DNA of 32,866 bases. It comes from Candidatus Limnocylindrales bacterium (lineage in GTDB: Bacteria; Chloroflexota; Limnocylindria; Limnocylindrales; CSP1-4). The stretch spans positions 1 through 32,866 of the forward strand of contig JBDSJV010000035.1 of the NCBI GenBank assembly GCA_039917225.1, given 5' to 3'. The notes beneath the pieces are model-generated. The model did not search any database, was not told where the DNA came from, and saw nothing but the letters and a program-made list of their open reading frames with translations. Below are positions 1 through 32,837 of the stretch, piece after piece (within the stretch, counting starts at the first letter, position 1; every line of letters begins with the position of its first letter). Both the position numbers and the translations under genes were made by a program.

Positions 1-2004
1 GCCGGCGACCAGGTCCTCAAGCAGATGCTGGACGACGGCATCGATCCACCCCTGCCGTTCGAGATGCAGCCGAAGACCGGTCGCAAGGCCGCCGTCATCG
101 GATCCGGCCCGGCCGGCATGGCCGCCGCCTACTACCTGCTCCTCAGCGGCCACGACGTGACCGTCTTCGAACGGGACGCGGCACCCGGCGGCATGCTCCG
201 CTACGGCATCCCGCAGTACCGTCTGCCGAAGGTCGAGGTCCTCGAGGCGGAGTACGAATCCGTCACCCGACTCGGCGGCAAGATCGTCTGCAACCAGGGA
301 CTCGGGCGGGACTTCACCCTGGACGACCTCCAGTTCCAGGGCTTCGATGCGGTCATTATCGCCATCGGCTGCTACGACACGAACAAGCTCGGCGTCCCGG
401 GCGAGGACGCGGCCGAGGTGCTCGACGGCCTCGAGTACCTGCGGACCGCGACACTCGGCCTGCCGTATCCGAACCATGTCGGCAAGCGCGTCGTCGTTAT
501 CGGCGGCGGCTTCACCTCGATGGACTCCACTCGGACCTCCGTCCGCCAGGGCGCCAAGGAAGTCACGCTCGTCTATCGCCGCGACATGAAGGACATGCCA
601 GCCGCGGGCGAGGTCCACGAGGCGATCGAAGAGGGCGTCACCGCCATCTTCCAGGCCGGCCCGACCCGGGTCATCACAGACGCCAAGGGCAACGTGACCG
701 GCGTCGAGTTCATCCGGATGGCGCTCGGTGAGCCCGACGCGTCCGGACGGCGGCGACCGCAGCCGGCACCCGGCACGGAATTCACGATCCCCTGTGACAG
801 GGTCCTGCTGGCCATCGGCCAGGGACCGGACCTGACATGGATCGGACCCGGATCCACGGGGCCGACCGCAACCAAGAACAAGCGCCTGCAGGCCGACGCC
901 GTCACGTTCGAAACGGCCCGTCGTGGCGTGTTCGCGACTGGCGACGTGCGGATCGGTGCAGCCACCGTGGTCCAGGCGGTCGCCGAGGGCCGCCGTTCCG
1001 CCTACGCGGCCGACGCCTATCTCCGCGGTCACGACCTGTCCGAGATCAAGACCCGCCAGACCCTGGCCGAGCCCCAGCCCGAGTTCCTGTCAATCGTCCC
1101 CTTCACCTCGGAGGCGAAGGAGCCGCGATACCGCCTCAAGGCCCTCGAGCCCGACGTCCGCAACAGCAGCTACGTCGAGTACGAGATCCCGTACTCGGTG
1201 GCCGAAGTGGTCGCCGAATCGACCCGCTGTCTGCAATGCACCTGCGAGGCGATCGGCTTCTGCGACCTCCGTCGCCTCGGGATCGAGTACGGAACCACGC
1301 TCCAGACGCTGGAGCCGCAGCACCACCAGGGCGCCGGCTACCGGAGCGTCACCGAGAACCGCTTCACCGGCGTCAACCACGACTACATCCGCGACGACAG
1401 CCACGCCTTCATCCTGCGCGAGCCGTCGCGCTGCATCGACTGCGGCCGCTGCGCGACCGTGTGCGCCGAGGTCGTCGGGGCGGCCTGCTACGACTTCATG
1501 CGCATCGGCTTCGACACGCTCGTGACGACGCCGCTCGATATGAGCCTCAACGACACGCCGTGCGTGTCATGCGGACGGTGCGCCGAGACGTGCCCGACCG
1601 GCGCGCTGATGCCCAAGCCGCGCATCCTCCAGAAGTTCGAGGTCGACGAGAGCCGCTGCATCCTGTGCGGCATCTGCGTCGACGCCTGCCCGTACGACGC
1701 ACTGCGCCATGGCGACGAGTTCGAGCTCGCGCACACCAGCCGCGAGGAGCCGATGATCGACCTGATGGCCCTCGCCTCGATCGATCGCGAGACCGACGTG
1801 ACCTACATCCGGCGCGAGCGTGACTGGCTCCAGCGAGCGGTCGAGGAGGGCCGCTTCGTCGATCGCGCGAAGCTCCTGCCCGTCCTCCCGGCCTCGGTCG
1901 CTTCATCCGGCGGCAACGGCAGCGCAAACGGCAGCGCGAAGGCGCTGCAGACCGGTGGCCACGACCACGGTGGGGCGGGCGGCACGCACGCCCACACGAA
2001 GTAG
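1..2004 (+). CDS. 5'-truncated multidomain flavo-iron-sulfur oxidoreductase: GltD-like NAD(P)H/FAD domain, then NuoG-N-terminal-like Cys clusters, then a NuoI-like 2x[4Fe-4S] C-terminus
   Basis: Frame 1 is open from nt 1 with no stop before the first ATG at 25, so the 5' end lies outside the window. GltD-like motifs: dinucleotide folds 'KAAVIGSGPAGMAAAYYL' and 'RVVVIGGGFTSMD', plus 'VFATGDVRIGAATVVQAVAEGRRSA'. Four Cys motifs follow: 'CLQCTCEAIGFCDL', 'RCIDCGRCATVCAEVVG', 'CVSCGRCAETCPTGAL' and 'CILCGICVDACPYDAL'. Next comes a NuoI-like post-cluster segment 'DEFELAHTSREEPMIDL' and a Gly/Ser/Asn/His-rich tail. The TAG stop at 2002-2004 is 7 nt before the nuoJ ATG. Confidence 0.8.
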   Translation, partial: AGDQVLKQMLDDGIDPPLPFEMQPKTGRKAAVIGSGPAGMAAAYYLLLSGHDVTVFERDAAPGGMLRYGIPQYRLPKVEVLEAEYESVTRLGGKIVCNQGLGRDFTLDDLQFQGFDAVIIAIGCYDTNKLGVPGEDAAEVLDGLEYLRTATLGLPYPNHVGKRVVVIGGGFTSMDSTRTSVRQGAKEVTLVYRRDMKDMPAAGEVHEAIEEGVTAIFQAGPTRVITDAKGNVTGVEFIRMALGEPDASGRRRPQPAPGTEFTIPCDRVLLAIGQGPDLTWIGPGSTGPTATKNKRLQADAVTFETARRGVFATGDVRIGAATVVQAVAEGRRSAYAADAYLRGHDLSEIKTRQTLAEPQPEFLSIVPFTSEAKEPRYRLKALEPDVRNSSYVEYEIPYSVAEVVAESTRCLQCTCEAIGFCDLRRLGIEYGTTLQTLEPQHHQGAGYRSVTENRFTGVNHDYIRDDSHAFILREPSRCIDCGRCATVCAEVVGAACYDFMRIGFDTLVTTPLDMSLNDTPCVSCGRCAETCPTGALMPKPRILQKFEVDESRCILCGICVDACPYDALRHGDEFELAHTSREEPMIDLMALASIDRETDVTYIRRERDWLQRAVEEGRFVDRAKLLPVLPASVASSGGNGSANGSAKALQTGGHDHGGAGGTHAHTK

Positions 2005-2011
2005 CCGACCG

Positions 2012-2602
2012 ATGCGAGCCTGGATGAACCTGCTGATCGCCGCCATCGCCGGCGCGATCATCACGACGCCTGCGTTGCTGGTCTTCGTCCTGGGCGGGGG
2101 GTCCGTGGATGACGCCCTGTTCGCGGCCCTCGCGACGCTGATGCTGACCTCCGCTCTGCTGGTGGTCACGATGCGGGACATCATCCGCTGCGGACTGGCG
2201 ATGATCGTGGCGTTTCTGGCCCTGGCCGGGATCTACGTCATCGTCGGCGCTCCGCTCGTCGCCGCAGCCCAGGTCATCGTCTACATCGGTGCGATCAGCG
2301 TCCTGATCCTGTTCGCGATCATGCTGACGGAGTCGAAGGCGGCTCCCTCGCGACTGGTGTTCCAGACGCAGGCGATCCCCGCCGCGGTGGCCTCGATCAT
2401 CCTGGCGGTCCTGATCACGCTCGGGATCAGCGCGACGGACTGGGGAGCCGCGGCCGTTCGCTTCCGATTGGGAACCGAGGCGTTGGCACAGGTGCTGTTC
2501 CGCGACTATGTCCTGCCCTTCGAAGTGGTCAGCGTCCTGCTCCTCGCCGCCGTGGTGGGCGGCGTCTTCATCGCCAAGCGCGAGCCCGAGGATCCGAGCT
2601 GA
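2012..2602 (+). CDS. nuoJ: NADH-quinone oxidoreductase subunit J
   Basis: '[21 protein letters not shown]' and C-terminal '[26 protein letters not shown]' are NuoJ/ND6 hallmarks. The protein has several TM helices. ATG 2012 is in frame with the listed ORF 1820..2602 and lies 7 nt after the upstream stop. A GTG at 2105 would give a more canonical length. The stop shares one nt with the nuoK ATG (TGATG). Confidence 0.88.
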
Positions 2603-2919
2603 TGGGCCTGGCCAACTCGCTCGACGCCTACCTGGTCCTGTCGGGCGCCCTCTTCGCGATCGGCACGTTCGGCTTCCTCGCCCGCCGCAACGCGATCAGC
2701 ATGCTGATGTCGATCGAGCTGATGCTCAACGCGGTCAACCTCGCGATCGTCGCCTTCGGCTCGTTCGTTCCGGCCCTCAAGGCTGATGGCTCGATCATCG
2801 CCCTGATGGTCATGGCCGTGGCCGCGGCCGAAGCCACCGTCGGGCTGGCGATCATCATCGCCATCTATCGGAATCGGAAGACGCCGCTGGTCGACGAGTA
2901 CGACCACATGCGCCGGTGA
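2602..2919 (+). CDS. nuoK: NADH-quinone oxidoreductase subunit K
   Basis: 105 aa with three hydrophobic helices. '[40 protein letters not shown]' is typical of NuoK/ND4L, including the membrane Glu. It lies between nuoJ and nuoL with overlapping start and stop codons. Confidence 0.95.
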
Positions 2920-4907
2920 GCATGGAGACGCTGATCCCGCTGATCGCCGCCCTGCCAATCGCCGGCTTCCTGTTCACGGCCGCCGTCGGGCGTCGCCTCG
3001 GACAACAGGCCCATATCGTCCCGGTCGCCGCCGTCGCGATCAGCTGGCTGATCGCCATGATCGTCGTCTTCACGGCCCTGACCGGCGGGTTCGGCGAGGA
3101 GGGGCGGTCGGTCAAGCTGTGGGACTGGATCCCCGCCGGGGGCTTTCACATCGAGGCAGCGTTCTTCGTTGACAACCTGACCGCGGTCCTGCTGATCGTG
3201 GTCACGACGATCGGCTTGCTCGTCCATGTCTACTCGATCGGCTACATGAGCCACGACCCGGGCTACTGGCGCTTCTTCGCCTACCTGAATCTGTTCATGT
3301 TCTCGATGCTCCTGCTCGTCCTCGGCGACAGCTGGCTGACGGTCTTCGTCGCCTGGGAACTGGTGGGCCTGTCCAGCTACTTGCTGATCGGCTTCTGGTA
3401 CCGCAAGAACTCGGCGGCCCTGGCCAGCAAGAAGGCGTTCATCGTCAACCGCGTCGGTGACGTCGGCTTCGCCCTCGGCATCATGGCGATCTGGGTCAAT
3501 ACCGGAACGCTCAACATCCGCGAGTCGATCGACGTCCTGACGAGCGAGACTTTCACGGCCTTCCCGATCCCGGTCGCGATCGTGGCGCTCCTTCTGTTCG
3601 CCGGAGCGATGGGCAAGAGCGCCCAGTTCCCGCTCCACGTCTGGCTACCGGACGCGATGGAGGGTCCAACCCCGGTCTCGGCCCTGATCCATGCGGCCAC
3701 GATGGTCAACGCCGGCGTCTACCTCGTCGCCCGGGCCAATCCGATCTTCGCCAGCGCGCCGGAGGCTATGGTGGTGGTGGCCGGGATCGGGATCTTCACG
3801 GCGATCCTGGCGGCCTCGATCGCGATGACCCAGACGGACATCAAGCGGGTCCTGGCCTATTCGACGCTGTCCCAGCTCGGCTACATGTTCGCGGCTCTCG
3901 GCGTCGGGGCGTGGACGGCGGCGATCTTCCACCTCATGACCCACGGCTTCTTCAAGGGCCTCCTCTTCCTCGGCTCGGGCTCGGTGATCCATGCGGTCCA
4001 CGAGGAGCAGGACATGCGGAAGATGGGCGGGCTGGCGAAGAAGATCCCGCACACCTACTGGACGATGCTGATCGGGTCGATCGCCATCGCGGGCATCCCG
4101 CCACTGGCCGGCTTCTTCTCCAAGGACGAGATCCTCGGCGAGGCGTTCAAGCTCGGCTTCGCCTGGGTCTGGGCGATCGGCGTACTCGTGGCGGTCATGA
4201 CCGCGTTCTACATGTTCCGACTCATCGGACTGACCTTCTGGGGCGAGAGCCGCGTGGACAAGGCGGTCGAGCCGAAGATCCACGAGTCGCCGCGGGTCAT
4301 GACCATTCCGCTCTGGCTGCTGGCGATTCCGTCGCTGCTCCTCGGCCTGGTCCTGGCGTGGCCGGGCCCGCCGCTCGGTCCGCTTTTCGGACAGGAGGGG
4401 CCGGGGCTTCTCGCCGGGTGGCTCGAACCGGTCTACCACGACGGCCTCGAGATCCTGGGCCACCACGAGGCCGAGTTCGCCCTCTTCGGCATCGATGGCG
4501 TGCTCATCCTGATCAGCGTCGCGGTCGCCGTCATCGGCATGGTCGCCGCCTGGCGGCTGTTCGGCGTCGAGATCGGCGGCCTCCGTCGGGGCGGGAACCC
4601 TGCGCAGGTCCAGGCCCTGTCCGCCCGCGTGCCGTTCCTCTACCGCGCCTCGCTCAACAAGTGGTGGTTCGATGAGCTCAACCATCTGGTGTTCATCGTC
4701 ATCGGCGGGCGCATCGCGGCCTTCCTGTGGTGGTTCGATGCCAACATCGTGGACGGCATCGTGAACGGCATCGGTACCGTCACCCGCCTGAGCGGCGGAG
4801 GGCTTGCCCGCGTCCAGACGGGCCGGGTCCAGAACTACGCCCTGGGAATCGCGATCGGGCTCATCGTGATGGTCGCTTCGTACGCCCTGATGACAGGAGG
4901 TCGCTAG
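2916..4907 (+). CDS. nuoL: NADH-quinone oxidoreductase subunit L
   Basis: 663 aa with an antiporter-like core: '[16 protein letters not shown]' and '[34 protein letters not shown]'. The long C-terminal extension carries 'KWWFDE' and '[15 protein letters not shown]', typical of the NuoL lateral-helix region. GTG 2916 overlaps the nuoK stop (GTGA). ATG 2922 is an alternative start. Confidence 0.95.
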
Positions 4908-4909
4908 CC

Positions 4910-6547
4910 GTGGACGGTCTGCCGATCCTGTCGCTCATCACGTTCCTGCCGCTGGCGGGGGCGCTTCTGATCGCGTTCCTGCCGTCGACCTACGCGCGAC
5001 CGGTCGCCCTCGGAGCCGCACTCCTCACCTGGATCGTGTCCCTCCTCCTGGCGATCGGCTTCTCGGCCAGTCGCGGCGGGTTGTTCCAGTTCACCGAGGA
5101 GGTGTCCTGGATCCCGGCCTTCGGGATCGAGTACAAGCTCGGCGTCGACGGGCTGTCGCTCCTGCTGGTGGTCCTGACCACGACGCTGTCGTGGATCAGC
5201 ATCCTGGCCAGCTTCAAGCCGATCCAGACCCGGATCAAGGAATACATGATCTCGTTCCTGATCCTCGAGGTCGGCATGATCGGCGTGTTCCTGGCCCTCG
5301 ACACGTTCCTCTTCTACATCTTCTGGGAGATCGTCCTCGTCCCGATGTACCTGATCATCGGGATCTGGGGTGGCGCGAACCGCATCTACGCCACGATCAA
5401 GTTCGTCCTCTACACCCTCGTCGGCTCGCTGCTCATGCTGGTGGCCATCCTCGCCACGGCATTCGCCTTCCAGGCGGCCCACGGCGGGGACTGGACGGGG
5501 GCCTTCGACTACGAGGCCCTGCGGGCCTTCGCGGCCAGCGGCGGCGGCTTCGATCCGACGCTCCAGCTGCTCGCCTTCGGGGCGTTCTTCCTCGCCTTCG
5601 CGATCAAGGTCCCGATGTTCCCGTTCCACACCTGGCTGCCCGACGCCCACGTCGAGGCGCCGACCGCCGGCTCGGTCATCCTGGCCGGTGTTCTGCTGAA
5701 GCTCGGTGGCTACGGGTTCATCCGCTACGGCCTGTCGTTCTACCCGGATGCGGCCCAGACCTACGCGCCGGCCATCATCATCCTGAGCCTCATCGCCATC
5801 ATCTATGGGGCGATCGTGGCGCTGGTCCAGCCGGACCTCAAGAAGCTCGTCGCGTACTCGTCGGTCAGCCACATGGGCTTCGTGACGCTCGGGATCTTCA
5901 TCTTCCAGCCGCAGGGCATGGAAGGAGCGATTCTCCAGATGGTCAACCATGGCCTGATAACCGGCGCCCTCTTCCTCCTCGTCGGCGTGATCTATGAGCG
6001 CACGCACGATCGGGCGATCGCCAGGATGGGCGGACTGGCGGCGCGAATGCCGGTCTACGTGACGATCTTCGGGTTCTTCGTCTTCGCCTCGGCCGGGCTG
6101 CCCGGTCTGTCCGGCTTCGTCGGGGAGTTCCTCACCCTCGTCGGCGCCTTCAGCTTCAATCCGTTGACCGCCGCGGTGGCCACGTTCGTGATGATCCTCG
6201 GGGCCGCCTACCTGCTCTGGATGTTCCAGCGCGTTGCGACCGGCGAACTGTCCTCGTTCCTGTCCGGACTCGGCTCCCACCTGACCGACGTCAGCCCGAC
6301 CGAGATCCTGACCCTGGCCCCGCTCATGGCGCTGGTGGTGGCCTTCGGGTTGTTCCCGGGGATCCTGCTCGACGTCATCAACGGCTCGGTGGACCGGGCG
6401 CTGGCGGACGTCAACGGCGGGGCGGCGATTGCCATCGACCCGCTCGCTCTCGCGATCGGGCTCGGTGCGCTCGCGGCCGTCGTGGTCCTGCGGGTCGTGA
6501 CACTCCCGATGTTCCGGGGTCGGGCCTCGGCCGAGAACTCCGCATGA
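4910..6547 (+). CDS. nuoM: NADH-quinone oxidoreductase subunit M
   Basis: 'KVPMFPFHTWLPDAHVEAPTAGSVILAGVLLKLGGYG' is an ND4/NuoM hallmark. GTG 4910 is in frame with the listed ORF 4727..6547, lies 2 nt after the nuoL stop, and is preceded by AGGAGG at 4895-4900. The listed upstream extension overlaps nuoL and reads as Arg-rich nonsense. Confidence 0.92.
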   Translation: MDGLPILSLITFLPLAGALLIAFLPSTYARPVALGAALLTWIVSLLLAIGFSASRGGLFQFTEEVSWIPAFGIEYKLGVDGLSLLLVVLTTTLSWISILASFKPIQTRIKEYMISFLILEVGMIGVFLALDTFLFYIFWEIVLVPMYLIIGIWGGANRIYATIKFVLYTLVGSLLMLVAILATAFAFQAAHGGDWTGAFDYEALRAFAASGGGFDPTLQLLAFGAFFLAFAIKVPMFPFHTWLPDAHVEAPTAGSVILAGVLLKLGGYGFIRYGLSFYPDAAQTYAPAIIILSLIAIIYGAIVALVQPDLKKLVAYSSVSHMGFVTLGIFIFQPQGMEGAILQMVNHGLITGALFLLVGVIYERTHDRAIARMGGLAARMPVYVTIFGFFVFASAGLPGLSGFVGEFLTLVGAFSFNPLTAAVATFVMILGAAYLLWMFQRVATGELSSFLSGLGSHLTDVSPTEILTLAPLMALVVAFGLFPGILLDVINGSVDRALADVNGGAAIAIDPLALAIGLGALAAVVVLRVVTLPMFRGRASAENSA

Positions 6548-6557
6548 GCGCCACCTG

Positions 6558-8030
6558 ATGACCTTCGAGGACCTCGTAACGATCGCCCCGTTCGTCGCGG
6601 CCATCCTGGTCGCGTGCGGTGTCGTCGTGGCCGACATCATCGTCCCGGGACGCCGAACGGCGGTGCTGGCGGTGGCGTTCGCCGGTCTTGCCGTCATCGC
6701 GCTGCTCACGATCAGCGCTGGAACGACCGCCGCCACGGCCTTCGGCGGTTCGTATCGCGTCGACGACCTGACGACCTACCTCGACCTGATCTTCATCGGG
6801 ATCGTCGCCCTGACGCTGCTCTTTGCTCCGGACTACCTGGAGGCGCGGCGACTGCCCCTCGCCGAGTTCACGGCGGTGCTGCTGTTCGCGATGACCGGCG
6901 CGATGCTGCTTGCGGCATCGGCCGACCTCCTCGTCCTGTTCATTGGCCTCGAACTGATGGTCCTGCCGGGCTACCTGCTCGCCGGCTACCACAAGTCGGA
7001 CGGCTTCTCGACCGAGGGCGCGATCAAGTACTTCCTGCTGGGATCGTTCAGCTCGGCGATCTTCCTGTTCGGCCTGGCATTCGTCTGGGGCCTCACCGGG
7101 ACGACCCGAATCAGCGAGGTCGCCGATTCGCTGGCGGCGATGACCGCAACGGGTGGCCTGTCCGCGGGATTGGCGCTCGGCCTCGCCTTCATGTCCACCG
7201 GCGTCGCCTTCAAGATCGCCGCGGTCCCGTTCCACTACTGGACACCGGACGCCTACCAGGGCTCGCCGACGCCGGTCACCGGGTACCTCAGCGTCGGGCC
7301 GAAGATCGGTGCGTTCGCCCTCATCCTTCGCCTCTTCGTCGAGGCGCTCGGCCCGCTCAAGCTCGACTGGTTGCCGGTCGTGGTGGTCCTGGCCATCCTG
7401 ACCATGACCCTCGGCAACCTCGTGGCGCTGACCCAGACCAACGTCAAGCGGATGCTGGCCTACAGCTCCATCGCCCACACCGGCTACATCCTCGTTGGTC
7501 TCGCCGCCTATGCCGCCGGTCGGATCGAGGGCCTCGAGGGCCTGCTGTTCTACGGGGCCGCCTACTCGGTCATGAACCTCGGCGTCTTTGCCGTCATCGC
7601 GGCGCTCCAGCGGCGCCAGGGCGTGACATCAAACCTGGATACCTTCGCCGGCCTCGTCCGGCGCGAGCCGGCCCTCGCGATCCTGATGACGCTGTTCCTG
7701 CTCTCGCTGACCGGTATTCCCCCGACGGCCGGGTTCTTCGCCAAGGCGTACGTGATCCTGGCCGCGGTCCAGGCGAGCCAGGCCGGGACCGACATCCTCG
7801 GGCTGCTGGCTGTGGTCGCAGTCCTGAACGCGGCGGCGGCGGCGTTCTACTACCTCCGCGTCGTGGTCTACATGTTCATGCGGGATCCGGCGTCCGACGA
7901 GCCCGGACTGGCGCACGGCCGGCTGATGTGGATCGGGTTGGCCGTCACGGCGCTGCTGACGGTCGCCTTCGGGCTGATCCCCGGTCCCTTGCTCGAGATC
8001 GTCGGGGCCGCCGCCCGCGCCATCGGGTAG
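6558..8030 (+). CDS. nuoN: NADH-quinone oxidoreductase subunit N
   Basis: 490 aa. 'KIAAVPFHYWTPDAYQGSPTPVTGYLSVGPK' and 'KRMLAYSSIAHTGYIL' are ND2/NuoN hallmarks. It is the last gene of the nuo run. Confidence 0.93.
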   Translation: MTFEDLVTIAPFVAAILVACGVVVADIIVPGRRTAVLAVAFAGLAVIALLTISAGTTAATAFGGSYRVDDLTTYLDLIFIGIVALTLLFAPDYLEARRLPLAEFTAVLLFAMTGAMLLAASADLLVLFIGLELMVLPGYLLAGYHKSDGFSTEGAIKYFLLGSFSSAIFLFGLAFVWGLTGTTRISEVADSLAAMTATGGLSAGLALGLAFMSTGVAFKIAAVPFHYWTPDAYQGSPTPVTGYLSVGPKIGAFALILRLFVEALGPLKLDWLPVVVVLAILTMTLGNLVALTQTNVKRMLAYSSIAHTGYILVGLAAYAAGRIEGLEGLLFYGAAYSVMNLGVFAVIAALQRRQGVTSNLDTFAGLVRREPALAILMTLFLLSLTGIPPTAGFFAKAYVILAAVQASQAGTDILGLLAVVAVLNAAAAAFYYLRVVVYMFMRDPASDEPGLAHGRLMWIGLAVTALLTVAFGLIPGPLLEIVGAAARAIG

Positions 8031-8034
8031 ACGT

Positions 8035-8054
8035 CCGGCGCGCTGGCGCGCTGG
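8035..8054. terminator. GC-rich hairpin between convergent nuoN and the redoxin gene; possible bidirectional terminator
   Basis: CCGGCGCG (8035-8042), loop CTGG, CGCGCTGG (8047-8054). This gives an 8-bp stem with one G-U pair. It sits in the 37-nt gap between the two stop codons. No U-tract follows, so the call is weak. Confidence 0.3.
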
Positions 8055-8067
8055 CGTGCCGCGATGG

Positions 8068-8718
8068 TCAGGGCGTGACCGTGACGCCGGGCAGGATCGT
8101 GCGAAGGTTCTCTGCCATCTGGTCGGGCCCGATCCCACCGATCGCCCCGGCCCGAATGATCCCCTCGCGATCCACCCAGAAGTGGATCGGCAGGGCGATG
8201 GCACCCCAGGCTTCCGCGGCCGTCCCGTCGACATCCAGGCCAACCGGGAACGGAGCGTTGACCAGTTTGACGAAGGAGGCGACGGTCCCCTCGTCCTCGC
8301 GGACGTCGATGGCCAGTACGACCAGGCCGGCATCCGCGTAGCGGGTGGCGAATCCGCCCATCAGCGGGAACTCGTCCACACACAGCAGACAGGTCGTCTG
8401 CATGAAATTGATCCATACCGGCCGCCCGGCGAGGTTCGCGAGGTCCACCTTGCCGCCGCCCAGCTGGGGGACTGACAGCGCCGGAGCCGGCTCGCCGATG
8501 TGGAACACGACGGTGCCGATCGTCGCCCCGACCGTCGGCGGCGGCTTCGTGATCGCGGCCTCGGTCGCTGACGGGGAGGCCGTCGCAACAGGTGGCGCCG
8601 TCGTCGCGCCAGGGAACGGGGTCAGCTCGGGCAGGAGAGCGACGGCCGCCACCAGGATCGCCACGGCGGCGACGGAGCCAGCGAACAGCCCGGCGATGAC
8701 AGCGGCACGTGGTCCCAT
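8068..8718 (-). CDS. Membrane-anchored TlpA/ResA-like thioredoxin-fold thiol:disulfide oxidoreductase
   Basis: N-terminal TM 'AAVIAGLFAGSVAAVAILVAAVALL', a Pro/Thr/Ala-rich linker, then a redoxin fold: 'GRPVWINFMQTTCLLCVDEFP' (CxxC = C-L-L-C) ... 'LVVLAIDVRED' ... 'ALPIHFWVDREGII'. Start set at ATG 8718 (residue 65 of the listed ORF). The upstream 64 codons are Arg/Pro-rich and overlap the divergent gene. Confidence 0.8.
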   Translation of the reverse strand: MGPRAAVIAGLFAGSVAAVAILVAAVALLPELTPFPGATTAPPVATASPSATEAAITKPPPTVGATIGTVVFHIGEPAPALSVPQLGGGKVDLANLAGRPVWINFMQTTCLLCVDEFPLMGGFATRYADAGLVVLAIDVREDEGTVASFVKLVNAPFPVGLDVDGTAAEAWGAIALPIHFWVDREGIIRAGAIGGIGPDQMAENLRTILPGVTVTP

Positions 8719-8783
8719 CGGTCGAGCGTACCAGTACGAGCGGGTCCCGGGCGACCCATCGGCACCGCTGCTAGCCTTCCTCC

Positions 8784-9497
8784 GTGGACGAACTCCTGGC
8801 TCGCGCCCGAACTCGACTCGTGCCCGCGATCCTGTCCGCGCTCGGGGTTGCGTTGCTGGCCGCGGGGCTGTTGACGTACAGCGCCCCGGTCGAGGCTGGA
8901 CCGGAGACATCGCAGGCGCCGATCATCGTCACGTTGCCGCCGACCGCGGCACCGTCGTTCACGGCGGCGCCGACGAACGAACCAGTCGCCACTGCCTCGC
9001 CCACGGCCGAGCCAACACCGCCGGCCGACCGCGTCGCAACGCGGGTCGTCGTCGGGGCGCTCAAGATCGACCTCGCCGTGATCCTGCCGCCGAATCCCAC
9101 CGCCTATCCGCTGTGCGACGTCGCGATGTACATCAAGGAGCTCGGACAGCCCGGGTTCGGGAGGGCGACCTATCTCTACGCGCATGCCCGCAGCGGCATG
9201 TTCCTGCCCATCCTGACGGCGTCGCGGATCGACAACGGCACGAGCATGCTGGGAATGACGATCGAGGTCTACACCAGCGACGACCAGCGGTTCACGTACC
9301 GGATCACCCAGGTGCGACGCCACCAGCTGGATCTTGACGCGGCCATCGCCACGACGACGGAGCAGGTCTGGCTCCAGACCTCGGAGGGCCCGAAGGGAAC
9401 GCCCGGCAAGACCCAGGTCGTGGCCGAGTTCGTGGCATCGGGCCCGGCCGACCCCGCGGATGCACACCCGGACCCGAAGCCAAGTGTGTGCTCCTGA
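8784..9497 (+). CDS. Membrane-anchored sortase-fold protein (class E/F-like) with Ser in place of the TLxTC cysteine
   Basis: N-terminal TM 'LVPAILSALGVALLAAGLL' and a Pro/Thr/Ala linker. The pattern that follows is sortase-like: 'RVVVGALKIDLAVI', 'QPGFGRATYLYAHARSGMFLPIL' (His134, codon 9183-9185), 'MTIEVYTSDDQRFTYRITQV', 'EQVWLQTSEGP' (Ser200, TCG at 9381-9383, where sortases have Cys), and 'GKTQVVAEFV' (Lys where sortases have Arg). The family assignment is by eye only. Confidence 0.5.
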   Translation: MDELLARARTRLVPAILSALGVALLAAGLLTYSAPVEAGPETSQAPIIVTLPPTAAPSFTAAPTNEPVATASPTAEPTPPADRVATRVVVGALKIDLAVILPPNPTAYPLCDVAMYIKELGQPGFGRATYLYAHARSGMFLPILTASRIDNGTSMLGMTIEVYTSDDQRFTYRITQVRRHQLDLDAAIATTTEQVWLQTSEGPKGTPGKTQVVAEFVASGPADPADAHPDPKPSVCS

Positions 9498-11761: not shown

Positions 11762-12898
11762 TCAGTCCCCATTCGGCTGCGGTAGTGGAATCGACGCCTT
11801 GCTCACCATCGGTGCAGACGCGCTGATGAGCGCCACGGCCGACGAGACGACGAACAACAGGAGGGCTGTGACATTGAGCACACCCCCTGTCTGCCACGCC
11901 GTTTCTGACCCAAGCAGGTCACCTCCCACGATCCGCAGCAGCAGACCGGCGTGCAGGAGGACGAGGTGGGCGTAGAAGCGCGGCCGGTAGGGCAGTGGGG
12001 TGCGCAACACGGCCGGCAGGATGACCGGAGCATGGCCGAAGACCATCGAGATCACGAAGCCCAGGAACAACGCGTGGAGCATCACGTCGTACAGGGATCC
12101 ACCGATCGTGGAGCCGAATGCGAGCCATCCTGCACCCGCGACCGCCAGCCAGGCGTATCCCGCGAGCAGCGACAGGGCGACGAAACGCGTGACACCTTGC
12201 CTGTGCACCGTTCGCCGAGCGATGTCGTACCGGGCGAGCCAGACGGCGAATAGAACCAGGCCCGCACCACCCACGCGCATCCCGGCCTCGGGCGCCACGA
12301 GCGTGGCCGTGACACCGAGGGCGAATACGCCGACGGCCCCGACGAAGGCGCGTCGTGCTGCCTCGGAGGGACGGCCCAAGCGCGACAGCTCGAGGCGCTC
12401 GCCGACGATGGTGAGAACGAGGAATGCGGCGAGCCAGGGGATCACGGTGCCGATCGGCCGGCCTCCGACGAGGAGCATGGCCGCAACCAGCCAGGCCAGT
12501 GCACCGATCGCCTGGACGGACGTGTGCATCGAACGCTCGATCCGGTCGAACGCCACGTACATCGCGACGAACAACGCGCCGCCGGTCGCAAGGAGGAACG
12601 CCCCGACCGGTGCCGGCAGGCCGAGGATGAGCGCCGCCGCACCCAGGCCCGAGGCCAGGGGTGCGAGATACCCCCAGGGCCGGTCGAGAGCGACGGCGCG
12701 TTCAAGAGCGATGAGCGTCCCCAGGAAGCCGAGCGTCATCAGCGGTCCATGGCTGGCCCCGAGGCGAACGGTGTCGGTCGGCATCGCCAGGCCGAGCAGG
12801 ACGAGGGCGCCGGTCAGCCCGGCGAGGAGCGCGGCACCGGCCAGGGCGAGCAGACCGAGACGCCGGAGCGGGATGGTCCGGGCGGTTATTGCAGCCAC
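11762..12898 (-). CDS. Polytopic integral membrane protein of unknown function (about 10-12 TM helices, conserved His; NnrS-like is only a guess)
   Basis: 378 aa and almost entirely hydrophobic. Recurring motifs: 'GTLIALERAVAL' / 'LTIVGERLELSRL' and 'HALFLGFVISMVFGHAPVILP'. The GTG start at 12898 overlaps the DUF59 stop by 13 nt, which suggests translational coupling. Confidence 0.7.
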   Translation of the reverse strand: MAAITARTIPLRRLGLLALAGAALLAGLTGALVLLGLAMPTDTVRLGASHGPLMTLGFLGTLIALERAVALDRPWGYLAPLASGLGAAALILGLPAPVGAFLLATGGALFVAMYVAFDRIERSMHTSVQAIGALAWLVAAMLLVGGRPIGTVIPWLAAFLVLTIVGERLELSRLGRPSEAARRAFVGAVGVFALGVTATLVAPEAGMRVGGAGLVLFAVWLARYDIARRTVHRQGVTRFVALSLLAGYAWLAVAGAGWLAFGSTIGGSLYDVMLHALFLGFVISMVFGHAPVILPAVLRTPLPYRPRFYAHLVLLHAGLLLRIVGGDLLGSETAWQTGGVLNVTALLLFVVSSAVALISASAPMVSKASIPLPQPNGD

Positions 12899-18508: not shown

Positions 18509-18785
18509 GTCATCCTCGCTGAATGGGGCGCGCTTCGGCTGTACGCCGTGAAGGGTGCGCCCCGGTGATGGCGGTAAGCCACCGCGCCTGAAGCTAGGGT
18601 CGCGGGTTGAAGACCCGTGGAAACCCGGGTGAATATGGCGTGAATGAGGTGGCCGGTCACGTTTTCATATGGCGTTCACGCTCATCCATTCGCTTGTTCG
18701 CTGAGAGCCTTCAATCTCCCGATGACGTGCCCGCTCGCCTTCGCACACCGTGTCGGTGCGCCTCGTCATAGACCGGAGACCACCG

Positions 18786-20063
18786 ATGCTGCAGACCCTT
18801 GAGATGCCCGCCCAGACGCGAGGCGCCAACCCGCTGGCGGCGGCTCTGGCCCAGTTTGATCAGACCGCCGACCACCTTCAGCTCGAACCCGGGATCCGCG
18901 CGATCCTCCGGGCGCCGAAGCGGGAGTGGACGGTCAATTTCCCGGTCATGCTCGACGACGGCACGGTGAAGGTCTTCACCGGGTATCGCGTGCAGCACAA
19001 CGTATCTCGCGGGCCGGCGAAGGGCGGCTTGCGCTATCACGAGACGGCGGACCTTGATGACGTCCGCGCCCTGGCGATGTGGATGACCTGGAAGTGCGCC
19101 CTCGTTGACGTTCCGTTCGGAGGCGCCAAGGGCGGAGTGACGCTGGATCCACGAATGTTCAGTACCAGGGAGCTCGAGGCCGTGACGCGGCGGTTCGCAA
19201 CAGAGCTTGAAGGGATCATTGGACCGGACTCGGACATCCCCGCGCCCGACGTCGGGACGAACGCACAGACGATGGCCTGGATCATGGATACGGTGTCGAT
19301 GCACCGAGGCTACTCGGTCCAGGGCGTCGTGACGGGCAAGCCTATCTCGATCGGCGGTTCGCACGGCAGGGCAGATGCGACGGGCCAGGGCGTCGTCTAC
19401 ACCATCGCCGATGCAGCGCGCCGGGGCGGCTTCACGATTGAAGGAGCACAGGTCGCCGTCCAGGGATTCGGCAACGTAGGTGAAGCGACGGCCCGGTTGA
19501 TGCACAAGGTGGGAGCACGCGTAGTTGCGATCACTGATGTCGGTGGCGGCGTGACGAACCCGGATGGCCTCGACGTGCCGCTGTTGACGCGGTACCTGCA
19601 GGAGCACGGCACGATTGCCGGCGCACCCGGCACAACGCCGATCTCGAACGACGAGCTCTTTGCGTTGGACGTTGACATCCTCGTCCTGGCTGCATTGGAA
19701 GGCCAGATCACGAAGGCGAATGCCAGCACGGTCCGTGCTCGGATCCTGGCCGAAGCGGCGAATGGCCCGACCACGCCTGATGCCGATCCGATCCTCCGCC
19801 AAAACGGAGTCGTCGTGATCCCCGACATCCTGTGCAACGCCGGAGGAGTGATCGTCAGCTACTTCGAGTGGGCCCAGAACCGGGCCGCGCTGGCATGGAC
19901 CCTTGACGAAGTCAACGAGCGTCTCCGACGCCAGATCCTCGTCGCTGCGGAGGCCGTCTGGCAACGAGCGGCGGCCGATAACGTCAGCCCACGGCTCGCG
20001 GCCAACGCGATTGCGGTCGAGCGGGTGGCCTTGGCGACCCAGCTGCGAGGCCTTTATCCCTGA
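18786..20063 (+). CDS. gdhA: Glutamate dehydrogenase (Glu/Leu/Phe/Val dehydrogenase family)
   Basis: 'KGGLRYHETADLDDVRALAMWMTWKCALVDVPFGGAKGGV' is the catalytic Lys region. 'DIPAPDVGT' is present. 'VAVQGFGNVGEATA' is the Rossmann GxGxxG. ATG 18786 is residue 13 of the listed ORF. Confidence 0.93.
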   Translation: MLQTLEMPAQTRGANPLAAALAQFDQTADHLQLEPGIRAILRAPKREWTVNFPVMLDDGTVKVFTGYRVQHNVSRGPAKGGLRYHETADLDDVRALAMWMTWKCALVDVPFGGAKGGVTLDPRMFSTRELEAVTRRFATELEGIIGPDSDIPAPDVGTNAQTMAWIMDTVSMHRGYSVQGVVTGKPISIGGSHGRADATGQGVVYTIADAARRGGFTIEGAQVAVQGFGNVGEATARLMHKVGARVVAITDVGGGVTNPDGLDVPLLTRYLQEHGTIAGAPGTTPISNDELFALDVDILVLAALEGQITKANASTVRARILAEAANGPTTPDADPILRQNGVVVIPDILCNAGGVIVSYFEWAQNRAALAWTLDEVNERLRRQILVAAEAVWQRAAADNVSPRLAANAIAVERVALATQLRGLYP

Positions 20064-20143
20064 TCGAACGGAGAGTGGTCTCTCGACTGGATCGGGCTCT
20101 GGTCGAGCAGGCCATCGGGTCGACTGAGTCGTCGATCCGCCGC

Positions 20144-21121
20144 TCACCCGAGAATCGAAGCAAATCCCAGCCCACCGCCAGCCTCAAGCCGTGCGAGCAG
20201 CAGATGGTAGTAAAGCATTCCCTGCTGGGGTCGCAGCGCGTCGATGACCTGGTCGACCTCCAGTCCGATCGGGCCGGCCACCAACGCGAGGTTCCGGGCG
20301 ACGCCCGTGTCGTTCATCGGAAAGACATCGAGCCGGCCGAGGCCGCGGAGCAGGATGACGGCCGCTGTCCACGGCCCGATGCCCTTGATGTCCTGGAGCA
20401 GGCCTGCGGCAGCCGGACTCGGGAGTGCCTCGAGCGTCGCCCGGTCGAGCCGGCCGGTCACGTGAGCCTCACCCGCACGCCGCAGCGTCGCGATCTTGCG
20501 ACCGCTGAGGCCGATCGCACGGAGGTCGTGATCCGCAGACGCCAGGAAGTGTTCGGGACCTGGGAACGGGTACAGCGAGACCCCATCGACGTCGACCGCT
20601 GGCTCAGCAGCCACGATCAGGCGCCGGACGATGGTGCTTGCTGCATGGAGACTCAGCTGCTGGAAGGTCACCACGTTCACAAATGCCTCCCAGAGCGATG
20701 CGTAACGAGGCGGTTTCACACCGCGCATGCGCAGCGCCAGTGGGCTTAACCAGGGGATGGTTGTGGCGGCCCGGCCGAATGAGCTGACGTCCCGATCCGT
20801 CCCAAGCATCGCCCGCACCAGGGCGAGGGCCGGTTCGTGGTCGTCCGGGTTGCCCTCGATCGTGGCGGCCAGGACCTCATCGCTGGCCTGAGCCACGCGG
20901 ACAATCACGGGTCCGTGCGCACCAATCAGCGCACGAACGTAGCGCCCGTCGGCCGTCAGCACGTCGACGATGTTGGTCGCCAGACGACGCAGGACGCTCA
21001 CGGTGAGATCGAGCCGATATGGAGCGATGACCGGAATTTCGTACTCTGATCGGATCGAGAGTGCTCGATCCCCGTGTACCAGGCGGCTGGCGGTCATCTG
21101 GTTGGTCAGTCGGTCTCTCAT
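20144..21121 (-). CDS. alkA: DNA-3-methyladenine glycosylase II-like HhH-GPD base-excision enzyme
   Basis: HhH 'LQDIKGIGPWTAAVILLRGLGRLDVFPMNDTGVARNL' with the catalytic Asp in 'MNDTG'. An AlkA-like N-terminal domain is present. An alternative start lies at the second Met (21097). Confidence 0.8.
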   Translation of the reverse strand: MRDRLTNQMTASRLVHGDRALSIRSEYEIPVIAPYRLDLTVSVLRRLATNIVDVLTADGRYVRALIGAHGPVIVRVAQASDEVLAATIEGNPDDHEPALALVRAMLGTDRDVSSFGRAATTIPWLSPLALRMRGVKPPRYASLWEAFVNVVTFQQLSLHAASTIVRRLIVAAEPAVDVDGVSLYPFPGPEHFLASADHDLRAIGLSGRKIATLRRAGEAHVTGRLDRATLEALPSPAAAGLLQDIKGIGPWTAAVILLRGLGRLDVFPMNDTGVARNLALVAGPIGLEVDQVIDALRPQQGMLYYHLLLARLEAGGGLGFASILG

Positions 21122-21333: not shown

Positions 21334-21744
21334 GTGCCCAATCTCCCTTCAACGCCAGTTCCTCCATCTCCGGAGACTGCTCTGAGCCCCTCCCCAGCCC
21401 GGATCCGCTCCACGATTGCCGCGGTCGTCGACCAGCCCGATGACCTCCGCGCGGTTCGTCTGATTCACAAGACGCTCGCTGACGTGAACCGCCTGCGGAT
21501 CGTGCGGCGACTCGCCCAGGGCGAGGCCTCCGTGACGGACCTCATCGATCACGTCGGGCTGAGCCAGCCCCTGGTGTCTTGGCACCTCGGCAAGCTCCGG
21601 CTCGCAGGGCTGGTGGAGACACGCCGCGCCGGCCGCGAGACCGTGACGCGGCTCATTCCGGAAGCCTGGGATCGCTTTGCCATCTACGAGCGGCGGGTGC
21701 TGGGCCTGGCGCCCGCCGAGCGGCCACGGAGCGCGGTTTCGTGA
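21334..21744 (+). CDS. ArsR/SmtB-family transcriptional regulator
   Basis: '[57 protein letters not shown]' is a canonical ArsR wHTH. The start is GTG at 21334. Its stop overlaps the next gene's GTG (GTGA at 21741-21744). Confidence 0.85.
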
Positions 21745-22418
21745 GCGGCTCATTGGTCTCCGCCGGTATGCGAAGCCGGTTCCGGGCCATGGCCGGGCCG
21801 ATTGCCCGGGCCCTCGGACGACTGGGCCTGACGCCGAATCACCTCACCTTCATCGGCTTCGGTATCGCCGTGATCGCGGCAGTCGCGGCCGCACAGCAGG
21901 CCTGGCTCGCGGCTGGACTCCTCGTGATCTTCGGCGCGGTCTTCGACCTGTTCGACGGCGCACTTGCGCGGGCCACGAACCGGGTCAGCAGGCTCGGAGC
22001 GTTCTACGACTCCGTCTTCGACCGCTGGGGCGAGGGCGTGATCTACGTCGGCCTCGTCTGGGGGACGCTGGACTTCGGGCTCTGGCTGCCGGTCATGCTA
22101 TCGGCCACCGCCCTTGCCGCTGCCGTCATGGTCAGCTACACGCGGGCCAAGTCAGAGAGCCTCGGTTTCACGACCGGGGCCGGCATGGCTGCCGTGGGTC
22201 TCGCCCCGCGCGAGGTCCGGATCGCGATCCTCTCGATCGGCCTCATCGTGGCCGGTCTTCTTCCTGGCTTCCCGGAGGACATGGACCTCCCGGGCGCGAT
22301 GGGCTATCCGTTGTCCGGACTTGCGCTGAACGCGGCCCTCGGACTCATCACGATCCTCGCCACGATCACGACGATCCAGCGCATTCTTCACGTTCGCGCC
22401 CAGGCTCGGGAGGGCTGA
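21741..22418 (+). CDS. CDP-alcohol phosphatidyltransferase; by context a phosphatidylinositol-phosphate synthase (PgsA1-like)
   Basis: The exact signature D-x2-D-G-x2-A-R-x8-G-x3-D-x3-D is present in '[30 protein letters not shown]'. The protein is multi-TM and lies immediately upstream of ino1. Start is GTG 21741 or ATG 21768. Confidence 0.85.
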
Positions 22419-22483
22419 CGCGCGGCGCGATCACTCGAATCATCCCACCAACCATCCAGCCCATCAGGAGTCAGGAGCAAGCA

Positions 22484-23710
22484 GTGAGCAGCAAGAACGG
22501 CAAGAACGGCACGACCGCCGGAACCTGGGCCGGTTCCGGGCGCAAGGACGGCAAGATCCGGGTCGCCATCGTCGGCGTCGGGAACTGCGCCAGCAGCCTC
22601 GTCCAGGGCCGCTACTACTACGAGAACGCCAAGGTCGGTGATTTCGTCCCGGGCCTGATGCATGTCGAGCTCGGCGGCTACCACGTCCGGGACATCGAGT
22701 TCGTGGCCGCCTTCGACATCGACAAGAACAAGGTCGGCAAGGACATCTCCGAGGCCATCTACCAGAAGCCGAACAACACCATCGTCTTCCAGCAGGTCGC
22801 GAACATGGGCGTCAAGGTCGAGCGGGGGATGACCCACGACGGCCTCGGGAAGTACCTCAGCCAGATCATCGAGAAGGCCCCGGGCCCGACCGCCGACATC
22901 GTCGGGATCCTCAAGGAGCGCGAGGTCGATGTCATGGTCTCGTACCTCCCCGTCGGGAGCGAGGAGGCGACCAAGTGGTACGTCGAGCAGGCGCTCCGTG
23001 CCGGCGTCGCGTTCGTCAACGCCATCCCGGTCTTCATTGGCCGCGAGCCCTACTGGCAGCGCCGCTTCGCCGAGGCCGGGCTTCCCGTCATCGGTGACGA
23101 CATCAAGAGCCAGGTCGGCGCGACGATCAGTCACCGCGTCATGACCCGCCTATTCATGGATCGTGGCGTTCGCCTCGATCGAACCTACCAGCTGAACTTC
23201 GGCGGCAACACCGACTTCCTGAACATGCTCGAGCGGGAGCGCCTCGAGTCCAAGAAGATCAGCAAGACGAATGCCGTCACCTCCATGCTCGACTACGAGA
23301 TGGATCCCGATGACGTCCACGTCGGGCCGAGCGACCACGTGCCGTGGCTGCTCGATCGCAAGTGGTGCTACATCCGGATGGAGGGCACGACCTTCGGTGA
23401 TGTGCCGCTCAACGCCGAGCTCAAGCTCGAGGTCTGGGACAGCCCGAACAGCGCCGGTGTCATCACCGACGCCATCCGCTGCCTCAAGCTCGGCCTTGAC
23501 CGTGGCCTGAGTGGGACGCTGGTCGCCCCGTCGAGCTACTTCATGAAGAGCCCGCCGCATCAGATCCATGACGACATCGCCTTCAACCGGGTCGAGGCCT
23601 TCATCCTGGGTGAGGACAACGAGACGCTCGTCGGCACCGAGGTCCCGACGGTCCGCAAGCTGCGGAAGATGGCCGGGTCGAAGGCGAAGGTCGCCGCCGC
23701 CGCGAAGTGA
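22484..23710 (+). CDS. ino1: myo-inositol-1-phosphate synthase
   Basis: '[22 protein letters not shown]', '[13 protein letters not shown]', '[17 protein letters not shown]' and '[16 protein letters not shown]' resemble the actinobacterial/archaeal-type MIPS. GTG 22484 is preceded by tandem AGGAG motifs (22466-22470 and 22473-22477). The listed 269-codon upstream extension is out-of-frame overlap with the previous gene. Confidence 0.92.

Positions 23711-27716: not shown

Positions 27717-27720
<4 letters not shown>
26542..27720 (+). CDS. pimA: GT4 glycosyltransferase, PimA-like phosphatidylinositol mannosyltransferase
   Basis: 'MKIGLVTPYVYPLPGGVNQHVRYLYENLRQRGHDVRIIT' parallels the PimA N-terminus. 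The GT4 E-x7-E region is 'RESFGIVLLEAMAAGTSIVCSD'. Synteny with the PI synthase and acyltransferases supports the call. The symbol rests on context, not on a search. Confidence 0.8.

Positions 27721-32837
<5,117 letters not shown>

Follow-up and report, generated by a model that had tools for sequence, protein, structure and literature searches.

Which protein fills the position of nuoI in the complex I operon of Candidatus Limnocylindrales bacterium (Chloroflexota), and what would it contribute to electron input? The question is raised by a stretch of 32,866 nucleotides (nt) of contig JBDSJV010000035.1 (assembly GCA_039917225.1, positions 1 to 32,866; here called the window), which begins within a long open reading frame (ORF) encoding a fused flavoprotein and iron-sulfur protein immediately upstream of nuoJKLMN. 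Complex I is among the best-studied respiratory enzymes, and its 14 core subunits, including NuoI/TYKY, are treated as fixed units; to our knowledge, NADPH is not regarded as one of its substrates. Comparison with profile families, solved structures and related genomes supports, with moderate confidence, the reading that the ORF represents the distal two thirds of an ~880-amino-acid (aa) peripheral-arm subunit of a rebuilt complex I, which would be fed by NADPH and in which NuoI would be split.

Domain composition of the fusion protein

Frame 1 of the window runs without a stop from its first nucleotide up to the TAG codon at 2002-2004 (667 codons), and the other two forward frames are stop-rich. 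The window is an entire contig of a metagenome-assembled genome, and the contig end truncates the gene on its 5' side, with ~215 N-terminal residues ([2Fe-2S] and Fer4_20 domains) missing, and an identical 667-aa protein (P0001) is recorded as 'FAD-dependent oxidoreductase, partial' (FAD, flavin adenine dinucleotide). The initial annotation had read this single ORF as a GltD-type flavoprotein joined to NuoG-like clusters and to a C-terminus related to NuoI; all the motifs that it quoted were found and were accompanied by Pfam and NCBIfam matches. Along the protein lie GSGPAG (aa 34-39) and GGGFTSMD (aa 168-175), four cysteine motifs designated a (CLQCTCEAIGFC, aa 410-421), b (CIDCGRCATVC, aa 478-488), c (CVSCGRCAETCP, aa 521-532) and d (CILCGICVDACP, aa 553-564), and the segment DEFELAHTSREEPMIDL (aa 572-588). 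In Pfam, aa 29-330 match a GltD-type Pyr_redox_2 domain with 99.9 bits (cut-off 26.1), aa 514-570 match Fer4 families, and aa 471-536 give a weak Fer4_Nqo3 match. Sub-threshold NCBIfam matches were obtained to GltD-like families, to [FeFe]-hydrogenase N-terminal cluster domains and HoxU at aa 450-541, and to NuoI at aa 541-587, corresponding to positions 71-117 of the 121-position model. The cut-offs of the glutamate synthase small subunit models TIGR01317 and TIGR01318 were missed (180 versus 448 bits and 251 versus 483 bits), and by these scores the fusion protein is not a glutamate synthase subunit.

The evidence for a divided NuoI comes from the two ends of the inserted module. When the C-terminal 167 aa of the fusion protein were scanned separately, NuoI was the top NCBIfam family (TIGR01971, 60.5 bits), again over positions 71-117 only. 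Positions 1-66 of the same model are matched by residues 8-77 of the NuoE-like protein encoded upstream in relatives (52.6 and 54.6 bits), whose N-terminus carries the first CxxCxxCxxxCP motif (CETCFQCAQACP) before continuing into a NuoE-like segment; the fusion protein itself has only the second NuoI motif, d. Joining the halves in silico produced one unbroken TIGR01971 match over positions 1-117 (104.8 and 108.6 bits), just below the curated NuoI cut-off of 113.05 bits, with NuoI as the top family and unrelated families far lower. The nine best PDB matches of the joined sequence were all NuoI/TYKY/NDUFS8 proteins, and its alignment with residues 23-147 of 7ar7_I (E value 5e-22) displayed strong identity in both halves. 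The nuoI slot is likewise occupied by both pieces, the C-terminal half ending 7 nt before nuoJ and the N-terminal half starting 7 nt after nuoH in relatives. On these alignments, NuoI is split directly before its second cluster motif, with the 5' half beside nuoH and the 3' half beside nuoJ, and the E, F and G/GltD coding regions separate the two halves.

The initial description of an extended NuoI connector is therefore borne out only in part: NuoI is indeed the best family for the C-terminus, but the fusion protein covers positions 71-117 alone, and positions 1-66 reside on the NuoE-like protein. The accompanying suggestion that motifs c and d form a self-contained 2x[4Fe-4S] NuoI unit was rejected, as motif c pairs with motif b in the StnC/HydA manner, the two aligning with the ferredoxin domain of StnC and motif c not with the first NuoI motif, and the first part of NuoI lies upstream. 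The four motifs pair without leftover because b and c are arranged as in StnC/HydA and d is matched by the motif of the NuoE-like protein; the latter pair would provide the N6a/N6b sites.

The part of the protein that precedes the NuoI half corresponds to StnC/NfnA. Full-length relatives, which are ~880 aa long and 84-94% identical, begin with two further domains, an N-terminal [2Fe-2S] domain (Fer2_4) and the GltD two-cluster domain (Fer4_20, 62 bits, Pfam). Their Pfam content is Fer2_4, Fer4_20, Pyr_redox_2 and Fer4, with two dinucleotide folds, GxGxxG for FAD and GxGxxx plus YRR for NADPH, following the Fer4_20 domain as in GltD/NfnB. In the full-length relative P0031, aa 47-778 align colinearly and in one stretch with 9bov_A (E value 2e-162), StnC of Sporomusa ovata (8oh5_C, 2e-140) and NfnA (9n5u_A, 2e-137). 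The StnC/NfnA layout, comprising a [2Fe-2S] domain, a GltD unit (FAD/NADPH and two [4Fe-4S] clusters) and NuoG-like clusters, is present in P0031, which also has a weak NADH-G_4Fe-4S_3 match at aa 128-144, raising the possibility that its GltD unit interrupts an N5-type (His-ligated) cluster motif; the part preserved in the window begins at the GltD dinucleotide domain. The alignment to StnC ends at about residue 700-708 of 1172, the fusion protein ends ~100 aa past motif d, and no molybdopterin-family match indicative of an FdhF-like molybdopterin-fold domain was found by Pfam in the window protein or a full-length relative. According to its published description (PMC10482914), StnC unites a NuoG domain with an NADPH-binding domain of the GltD type; electrons pass from NADPH/FAD through the clusters to the NuoF-like StnB, and a dead-end branch of clusters points to an FdhF-like domain that is catalytically inert.

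Operon context, partner proteins and other genes of the window

The upstream part of the operon was traced in relatives, among them the close relatives L001 (on a contig of 2.98 Mb), L002 (199 kb), L003 and L004. The gene order is nuoA-B-C-D-H-[I_N::E]-F-[G/GltD::I_C]-J-K-L-M-N (L001-L004 and L007-L009). The check for nuoA/B/C/D/H that the initial annotation had called for was answered positively in these relatives, and within the ~12-22 kb covered around each match, a stand-alone nuoG or nuoI was present in none of the relatives' operons. Between nuoH and the fusion gene, L001-L004 encode a 221-226-aa '2Fe-2S_thioredx' protein followed by a 443-449-aa NuoF-like protein. When the L001 and L007 proteins were compared by tblastn with all 89 loci and the window, the core order D-H-IE-F-X-J was recovered in 60 of the 60 loci with enough flank, and shorter flanks displayed partial versions of it. 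With NuoE- and NuoF-like genes immediately upstream in every one of these 60 loci, the proposal of a complex without NuoEF is contradicted in its literal form; its spirit may hold in this lineage, where the NuoE/F-like proteins look degenerate. The membrane and quinone modules (P- and Q-modules) are those of complex I: NuoB (217 versus 116 bits), NuoD (424 versus 360 bits) and NuoH (321 versus 305 bits) of L001 exceed their complex I cut-offs, as do NuoK, NuoL, NuoM and NuoN of the window.

When GTDB was scanned with one genome for each species, at least 600 pattern matches were obtained, and tblastn confirmed at least 401 of them. Among these at least 401 matches, the best 80 all belong to Limnocylindria-type Chloroflexota metagenome-assembled genomes (MAGs), complete chromosomes included, and are 80-96% identical. 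Near-identical ~880-aa proteins are encoded on hundreds of independent contigs, and the survey for an equal fusion beside nuoJ found it in at least 80 species-level genomes, which is taken to exclude an assembly artefact. A second clade, with proteins of 816-865 aa that are ~45% identical overall, occurs in MAGs of Thermoleophilia/Actinomycetota (L007-L009) and shares both the split of NuoI and the gene order. Across 79 sequences from the two phyla, the four [2Fe-2S] Cys, the His/Cys ligands of the GltD clusters, all 17 Cys in motifs a-d, the glycines of the FAD and NADPH sites, and the E and R of the NuoI tail are invariant, and the YRR motif is retained in ~70 of the 79.

Several unusual database entries were encountered during the survey. 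Matches of 150-220 aa to the C-terminus, some on contigs of more than 100 kb, were considered as separate nuoI-like genes and rejected. They were traced to noisy long-read assemblies, L005 (ERZ25039489 contig_83919) and L006 (ERZ25039551 contig_14637), in which many genes are frameshifted; these contain the fusion gene in pieces, spurious reverse-strand ORFs and, apparently, a fusion of NuoD with NuoH (873 aa). Frameshifted assemblies of this type account for the false 'stand-alone' 150-220-aa ferredoxin-like database proteins. L013 (DASPHN010000135.1) carries a Limnocylindria-type fusion (93% identity) in a MAG labelled Candidatus Saccharimonadales, and is likely mis-binned or mislabelled. 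In addition, P0274 (1049 aa) and P0278 (705 aa) possess a [2Fe-2S]-GltD-motif a/b/c/d unit whose motif d is ~70% identical to that of the window, with the NuoI tail replaced by a thiamine pyrophosphate-binding, PorB-like 2-oxoacid:ferredoxin oxidoreductase beta domain; their single 'half-ferredoxin' motif would also need a partner.

The partner proteins differ between the two clades. In Limnocylindria, the NuoF-like protein scores higher against HydB/StnB (329 bits) than against true NuoF (235-271 bits), consists of 443-449 aa with only the Complex1_51K and NADH_4Fe-4S domains, and ends 9-19 aa past CPAGxC; it lacks the N-terminal [2Fe-2S] and C-terminal 2x[4Fe-4S] domains of Bfu clusters B2-B5 and looks like a trimmed BfuB. 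At the N3 site, the canonical CGKCVPC is replaced by CGK[T/S/A]IPC, with the second Cys lost in all ~70 Limnocylindria loci (e.g. L001:8641-9990; L002-L089) and the other three retained. Cx2Xx2C...C is a pattern of [3Fe-4S] sites, and the three-Cys N3 site may represent such a site or a lost cluster. The flavin mononucleotide (FMN)-contact motif NGDEGDP is likewise altered, to NG[Y/F][G/E][A/S]DP.

Of the 145 positions in the thioredoxin-like model, the NuoE part of the closest relatives matches only 2-64; as this part contains no Cys, N1a must be absent. Most Limnocylindria NuoE-like parts (e.g. L001:7979-8644) are similarly devoid of the thioredoxin-like [2Fe-2S] domain, with 0 Cys and a tail of 58-100 aa; those of Candidatus Limnocylindrus and a few other lineages (L062-L071, L080 and L088) have 3-4 Cys and a tail of ~120-133 aa, and N1a looks to have been lost stepwise across Limnocylindria. 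A canonical N-module is accordingly not encoded in the closest relatives, in which the N1a domain is gone, an N3 Cys is lost and NuoG is replaced by the fusion protein. The 636-642-aa F protein of Thermoleophilia, by comparison, matches BfuB/HydB/StnB end to end (770-790 bits, versus 388 for Thermus Nqo1) and has the N-terminal [2Fe-2S] and C-terminal 2x[4Fe-4S] domains that define Bfu enzymes. Its NuoE partner retains all four [2Fe-2S] Cys (L007:7311-12475, L008 and L009; e.g. GCA_040769125.1). Judged by these matches, a whole Stn/Nfn-Bfu-like trimer is embedded in the complex I of this clade.

The features of the operon in the window are collected in Table 1. As first described, the fusion ORF stops 7 nt before nuoJ and the nuoJKLMN genes overlap or nearly abut, nuoJ and nuoK sharing ATGA (2599-2602) and nuoK and nuoL sharing GTGA (2916-2919). 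The placement of the ORF in the nuoI position of one transcription unit with nuoJ was likewise upheld, a consensus scan having revealed neither promoter- nor terminator-like sites close to the junction; over nt 1-9000, the same scan found no promoter-like site and terminator-like sites at chance level only. The tail of the fusion protein (GNGSANGS...GGHDHGGAGGTHAHTK) is variable in Limnocylindria homologues and missing from the Thermoleophilia clade.

Table 1. Coordinates of the fusion gene, its domains and motifs, and the downstream nuo genes in the window
Feature	Position (nt)	Strand	Basis
Fusion gene, 3' part: StnC/NfnA-type GltD-NuoG plus C-terminal half of NuoI	1..2004	+	ORF, Pfam, NCBIfam, PDB alignment
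GltD/NfnB-type FAD and NAD(P)H dinucleotide-binding domain	85..990	+	Pyr_redox_2; aligns with StnC, NfnB and GltD chains
GltD-domain motifs GSGPAG; GGGFTSMD; VYRRD	100-117; 502-525; 571-585	+	Invariant or near-invariant in 79 homologues
Motif a, four Cys, CLQCTCEAIGFC; probably binds one [4Fe-4S] cluster	1228..1263	+	Matches StnC CLECGCMDYFEC
Motifs b and c, HydA/StnC/NuoG-type ferredoxin-like domain; probably holds two [4Fe-4S] clusters	1432..1596	+	Colinear with 9bov_A and 8oh5_C; Cys all invariant
NuoI C-terminal half: strand before second cluster motif, motif d, tail	1621..1764	+	TIGR01971 positions 71-117 of 121
Within the NuoI C-terminal half: motif d; conserved F-E-L...R tail	1657-1692; 1714-1764	+	
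Gly/Asn/His-rich low-complexity C-terminal tail	1903..2001	+	Sequence; variable among homologues
nuoJ, 196 aa	2012..2602	+	ATG 7 nt past fusion stop; NuoJ models top but below equivalog cut-offs
nuoK, 105 aa	2602..2919	+	NF004320, 109.3 bits versus cut-off 57
nuoL, 663 aa	2916..4907	+	NF005141, 730 bits versus cut-off 556
nuoM, GTG start at 4910 behind AGGAGG	4910..6547	+	TIGR01972, 589 bits versus cut-off 264
nuoN, 490 aa, last gene of the operon	6558..8030	+	TIGR01770, 423 bits versus cut-off 333

Directly downstream of the operon lie three large ORFs of 330-478 aa, at 8345-9337 (+), 11762-12898 (-) and 18711-20147 (-). None of them matches a Pfam family, and NCBIfam, against which the first two were compared, likewise gave no match; the three may be lineage-specific genes or chance ORFs in high-GC DNA. 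The 677-aa ORF at 21677-23710 (+) contains a myo-inositol-1-phosphate synthase domain at residues 481-589, and its true start probably lies further downstream. A GT4 glycosyltransferase is encoded at 25519-27720 (+). Near the contig end, a 1706-aa ORF at 27717-32837 (-) encodes a protein O-mannosyltransferase-like product, of which only residues ~996-1481 match (PMT and PMT_4TMC) and the long N-terminal part has no match; this ORF may be over-extended in high-GC DNA. Together with the latter gene, those at 21677-23710 and 25519-27720 may form a cell-envelope glycosylation cluster.

Proposed function and competing explanations

The gene order fits the insertion of a three-gene Stn/Nfn-Bfu cassette into the nuoI of an 11-subunit-type operon, as judged from synteny. 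The two NuoI halves, although carried by different polypeptides, would assemble the N6a/N6b ferredoxin domain and dock it on NuoB, NuoD and NuoH. NADPH would be oxidised at the FAD of the GltD domain, and electrons would then travel through the GltD clusters, the NuoG-like clusters and N6a/N6b to N2 and on to quinone, a transfer that would drive proton pumping. In Limnocylindria, where the NuoE/F-like proteins are reduced and remodelled, the GltD site would probably be the main, or at least a second, point of input, and NADH oxidation at NuoF and an internal NADH/NADPH exchange could still take place. With their full Bfu module, Thermoleophilia could additionally carry out bifurcation or confurcation linked to ferredoxin. 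From the homologies described above, the most likely function appears to be the input of NADPH, possibly together with NADH, to a proton-pumping complex I.

A broader interpretation, advanced only tentatively and with less than even confidence, unites both clades. It proposes a complex I of two phyla in which an input module derived from Stn/Nfn enzymes sits within nuoI and the N6a/N6b domain is formed from two chains. With a vestigial NADH branch, the Limnocylindria version would act as a proton-pumping NADPH:quinone oxidoreductase, and the Thermoleophilia version would be a membrane enzyme in which bifurcation or confurcation couples the proton-motive force to NADH, NADPH, ferredoxin and quinone.

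Several points weigh against an NADPH-fed complex I with a split NuoI. The genes upstream of the fusion in the window's own organism are deduced from relatives that are 80-96% identical. AlphaFold2 modelling of full-length P0031, based on a 79-sequence alignment, gave a mean predicted local distance difference test (pLDDT) score of 61.6, with a confident GltD domain and residues 628-879 below 50, and the C-terminal 268 aa of the window protein reached a pLDDT of 44. Specificity for NADPH over NADH is suggested by the YRR motif and the homology to StnC/NfnB only. Moreover, the NuoF-like protein of Limnocylindria retains GEET as well as the GLRGRGGAG loop and has lost only one of its four N3 Cys, and its oxidation of NADH may be fully functional.

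The direction of electron flow is the subject of a competing explanation, in which the GltD domain would serve as an NADP+ reductase that generates NADPH either from NADH, by way of the FMN of the NuoF-like protein, or from quinol together with the proton-motive force. Instead of a respiratory NADPH dehydrogenase, the complex would be a transhydrogenase anchored in the membrane and possibly energy-linked. The reversibility of complex I is well known, and the NuoF-like proteins retain most nucleotide- and FMN-loop residues. StnABC, for its part, is a reversible transhydrogenase in which FAD and FMN are wired through the StnC clusters (PMC10482914). We nevertheless hold this explanation to be unlikely, though not negligible: the conservation of the Q-/P-module and the split NuoI in more than 80 species argues that the link to quinone matters, and the loss of N1a and of one N3 Cys in Limnocylindria weakens the FMN branch on which the reaction depends. 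The canonical NuoG possesses a large C-terminal domain that is catalytically inert, which makes it conceivable that the GltD domain is an inert replacement, too. It would then be an accessory (regulatory, redox-sensing or a structural stand-in for the molybdopterin-like domain of NuoG) of a canonical, NADH-oxidising complex I, in keeping with the constant presence of NuoE/F-like genes. This we regard as improbable, since none of the FAD, NADPH and cluster ligands of the GltD module varies between two phyla whose proteins are ~45% identical overall, which points to selection on catalysis, and since the loss of ligands in Limnocylindria is seen instead on the NuoE/F side.

Very little probability is assigned to the explanation originally proposed, that of a whole NuoI carrying its own flavin dehydrogenase as an extension in a complex without NuoEF. 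It conflicts with the NuoE- and NuoF-like genes directly upstream in all 60 informative relatives and with the distribution of the NuoI sequence, of which the ORF holds positions 71-117 and the NuoE-like protein the first cluster motif; what speaks for it is that the ORF ends in the nuoI slot with a GltD module and NuoI-like sequence, and that the NuoE/F-like proteins of the lineage look degenerate. Finally, the breakage of the gene into 150-220-aa pieces in some long-read assemblies could hint at an artefact (a frameshift or an assembly chimera), and a soluble Stn-like enzyme might adjoin nuoJ by chance. Such explanations are scarcely credible: the assemblies in question (L005 and L006) fragment many neighbouring genes as well, so that the pieces are errors, and intact genes for ~820-890-aa proteins occur on hundreds of independent NCBI, JGI and ENA contigs, while at least 80 species genomes have them in identical synteny; in addition, the NuoI halves are exactly complementary, and the operon contains no other nuoG or nuoI.

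Significance and comparison with known systems

In the literature covered, which lies mostly outside subscription journals, no description was found of a GltD-bearing NuoG fused to NuoI, of a split NuoI, of the Limnocylindria/Thermoleophilia operon or of respiration in Limnocylindria, in line with the initial impression that the architecture was undescribed. A core iron-sulfur subunit of complex I would appear to be split here, with an input module encoded and tethered between its halves and an NADPH flavoprotein wired into the cluster chain. If functional, such a complex would permit respiratory energy conservation directly from NADPH, or the production of NADPH by reverse electron flow, without a separate transhydrogenase, in host lineages that are abundant in lakes and soils and mostly uncultured. 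It would also offer a natural example of the grafting of an N-module onto an 11-subunit ancestor, a long-standing question in complex I evolution, and would physically link soluble bifurcating enzymes of the Bfu/Stn type to a proton pump. On the practical side, annotations such as 'FAD-dependent oxidoreductase' and 'NuoE' mask the missing NuoG and NuoI in these genomes, and pathway-completeness tools seeking separate NuoG and NuoI might score complex I there as incomplete.

With respect to canonical subunits, the joined halves align end to end with NuoI/Nqo9/TYKY (NDUFS8) of solved complexes, but here one ferredoxin fold would extend over two polypeptides, each fused to an N-module subunit, and neither half nor the rejoined sequence attains the curated NuoI cut-off. 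Like NuoG/Nqo3, the fusion protein combines an N-terminal [2Fe-2S] domain (Fer2_4) with a ferredoxin-like cluster domain and is the only NuoG-like protein of the operon; unlike NuoG/Nqo3, it has neither the molybdopterin-like domain nor N7, and it bears a GltD insertion after the [2Fe-2S] domain. It also keeps the second cluster in the ferredoxin domain, as do HydA and HoxU, in contrast to NuoG.

The nearest relatives are StnC and NfnA (BfuA) of the Stn/Nfn-Bfu transhydrogenases (8oh5_C, 9bov_A and 9n5u_A; PMC10482914, PMC11829005), with which the fusion protein is colinear through the ferredoxin domain. As in those systems, its gene adjoins NuoE-like and NuoF-like genes, the latter being a full BfuB in Thermoleophilia. 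Unlike StnC, it has a NuoI half in place of the ~480-aa FdhF-like C-terminal domain responsible for StnC tetramerisation; unlike the Stn/Nfn-Bfu genes, it is located within a nuo operon; and unlike bifurcating Bfu enzymes, its B-type partner in Limnocylindria is devoid of Bfu-defining clusters. The 'Nuo-Bfu' complexes of Schut et al. (2022; PMC9304861), predicted quinone oxidoreductases that resemble complex I and contain a BfuABC module, were described to comprise 14 separate subunits (A-N), including an intact NuoI and a BfuA without GltD, and to occur in Deferribacteres, Proteobacteria, Planctomycetes and Nitrospirae, 'Nfn-Bfu' enzymes being treated separately. They share with the present operon a HydABC/Bfu-type E-F-G module inside a nuo cluster and a predicted membrane proton pump, and the Thermoleophilia version has a complete BfuB. 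They differ from it in their BfuA, whose counterpart here belongs to the Nfn/Stn (NADPH) type, and in their undivided NuoI, and the lineage of the window has lost the bifurcation-specific clusters.

A GltD-related NAD(P)-binding flavoprotein in the place of NuoI is also known from membrane complexes akin to complex I, those of the Mbx-like operons of Thermotoga and proteobacteria, where it was proposed as a site of NAD(P)+ reduction (Degli Esposti 2015, PMC4758237). That flavoprotein replaces NuoI without being fused to any half of it, and complexes of the Mbx type, unlike the complex of the window, have NuoD homologues with vestigial NiFe ligands, lack NuoEF and are not quinone reductases. 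Input to a conserved Q/P-module by devices other than NuoEFG is likewise represented by FpoF of the F420H2 dehydrogenase and by the ferredoxin-binding NdhS/O/V of NDH-1; these are unrelated proteins with unrelated donors, whereas the input device described here is homologous to relatives of NuoEFG and appears covalently threaded through NuoI.

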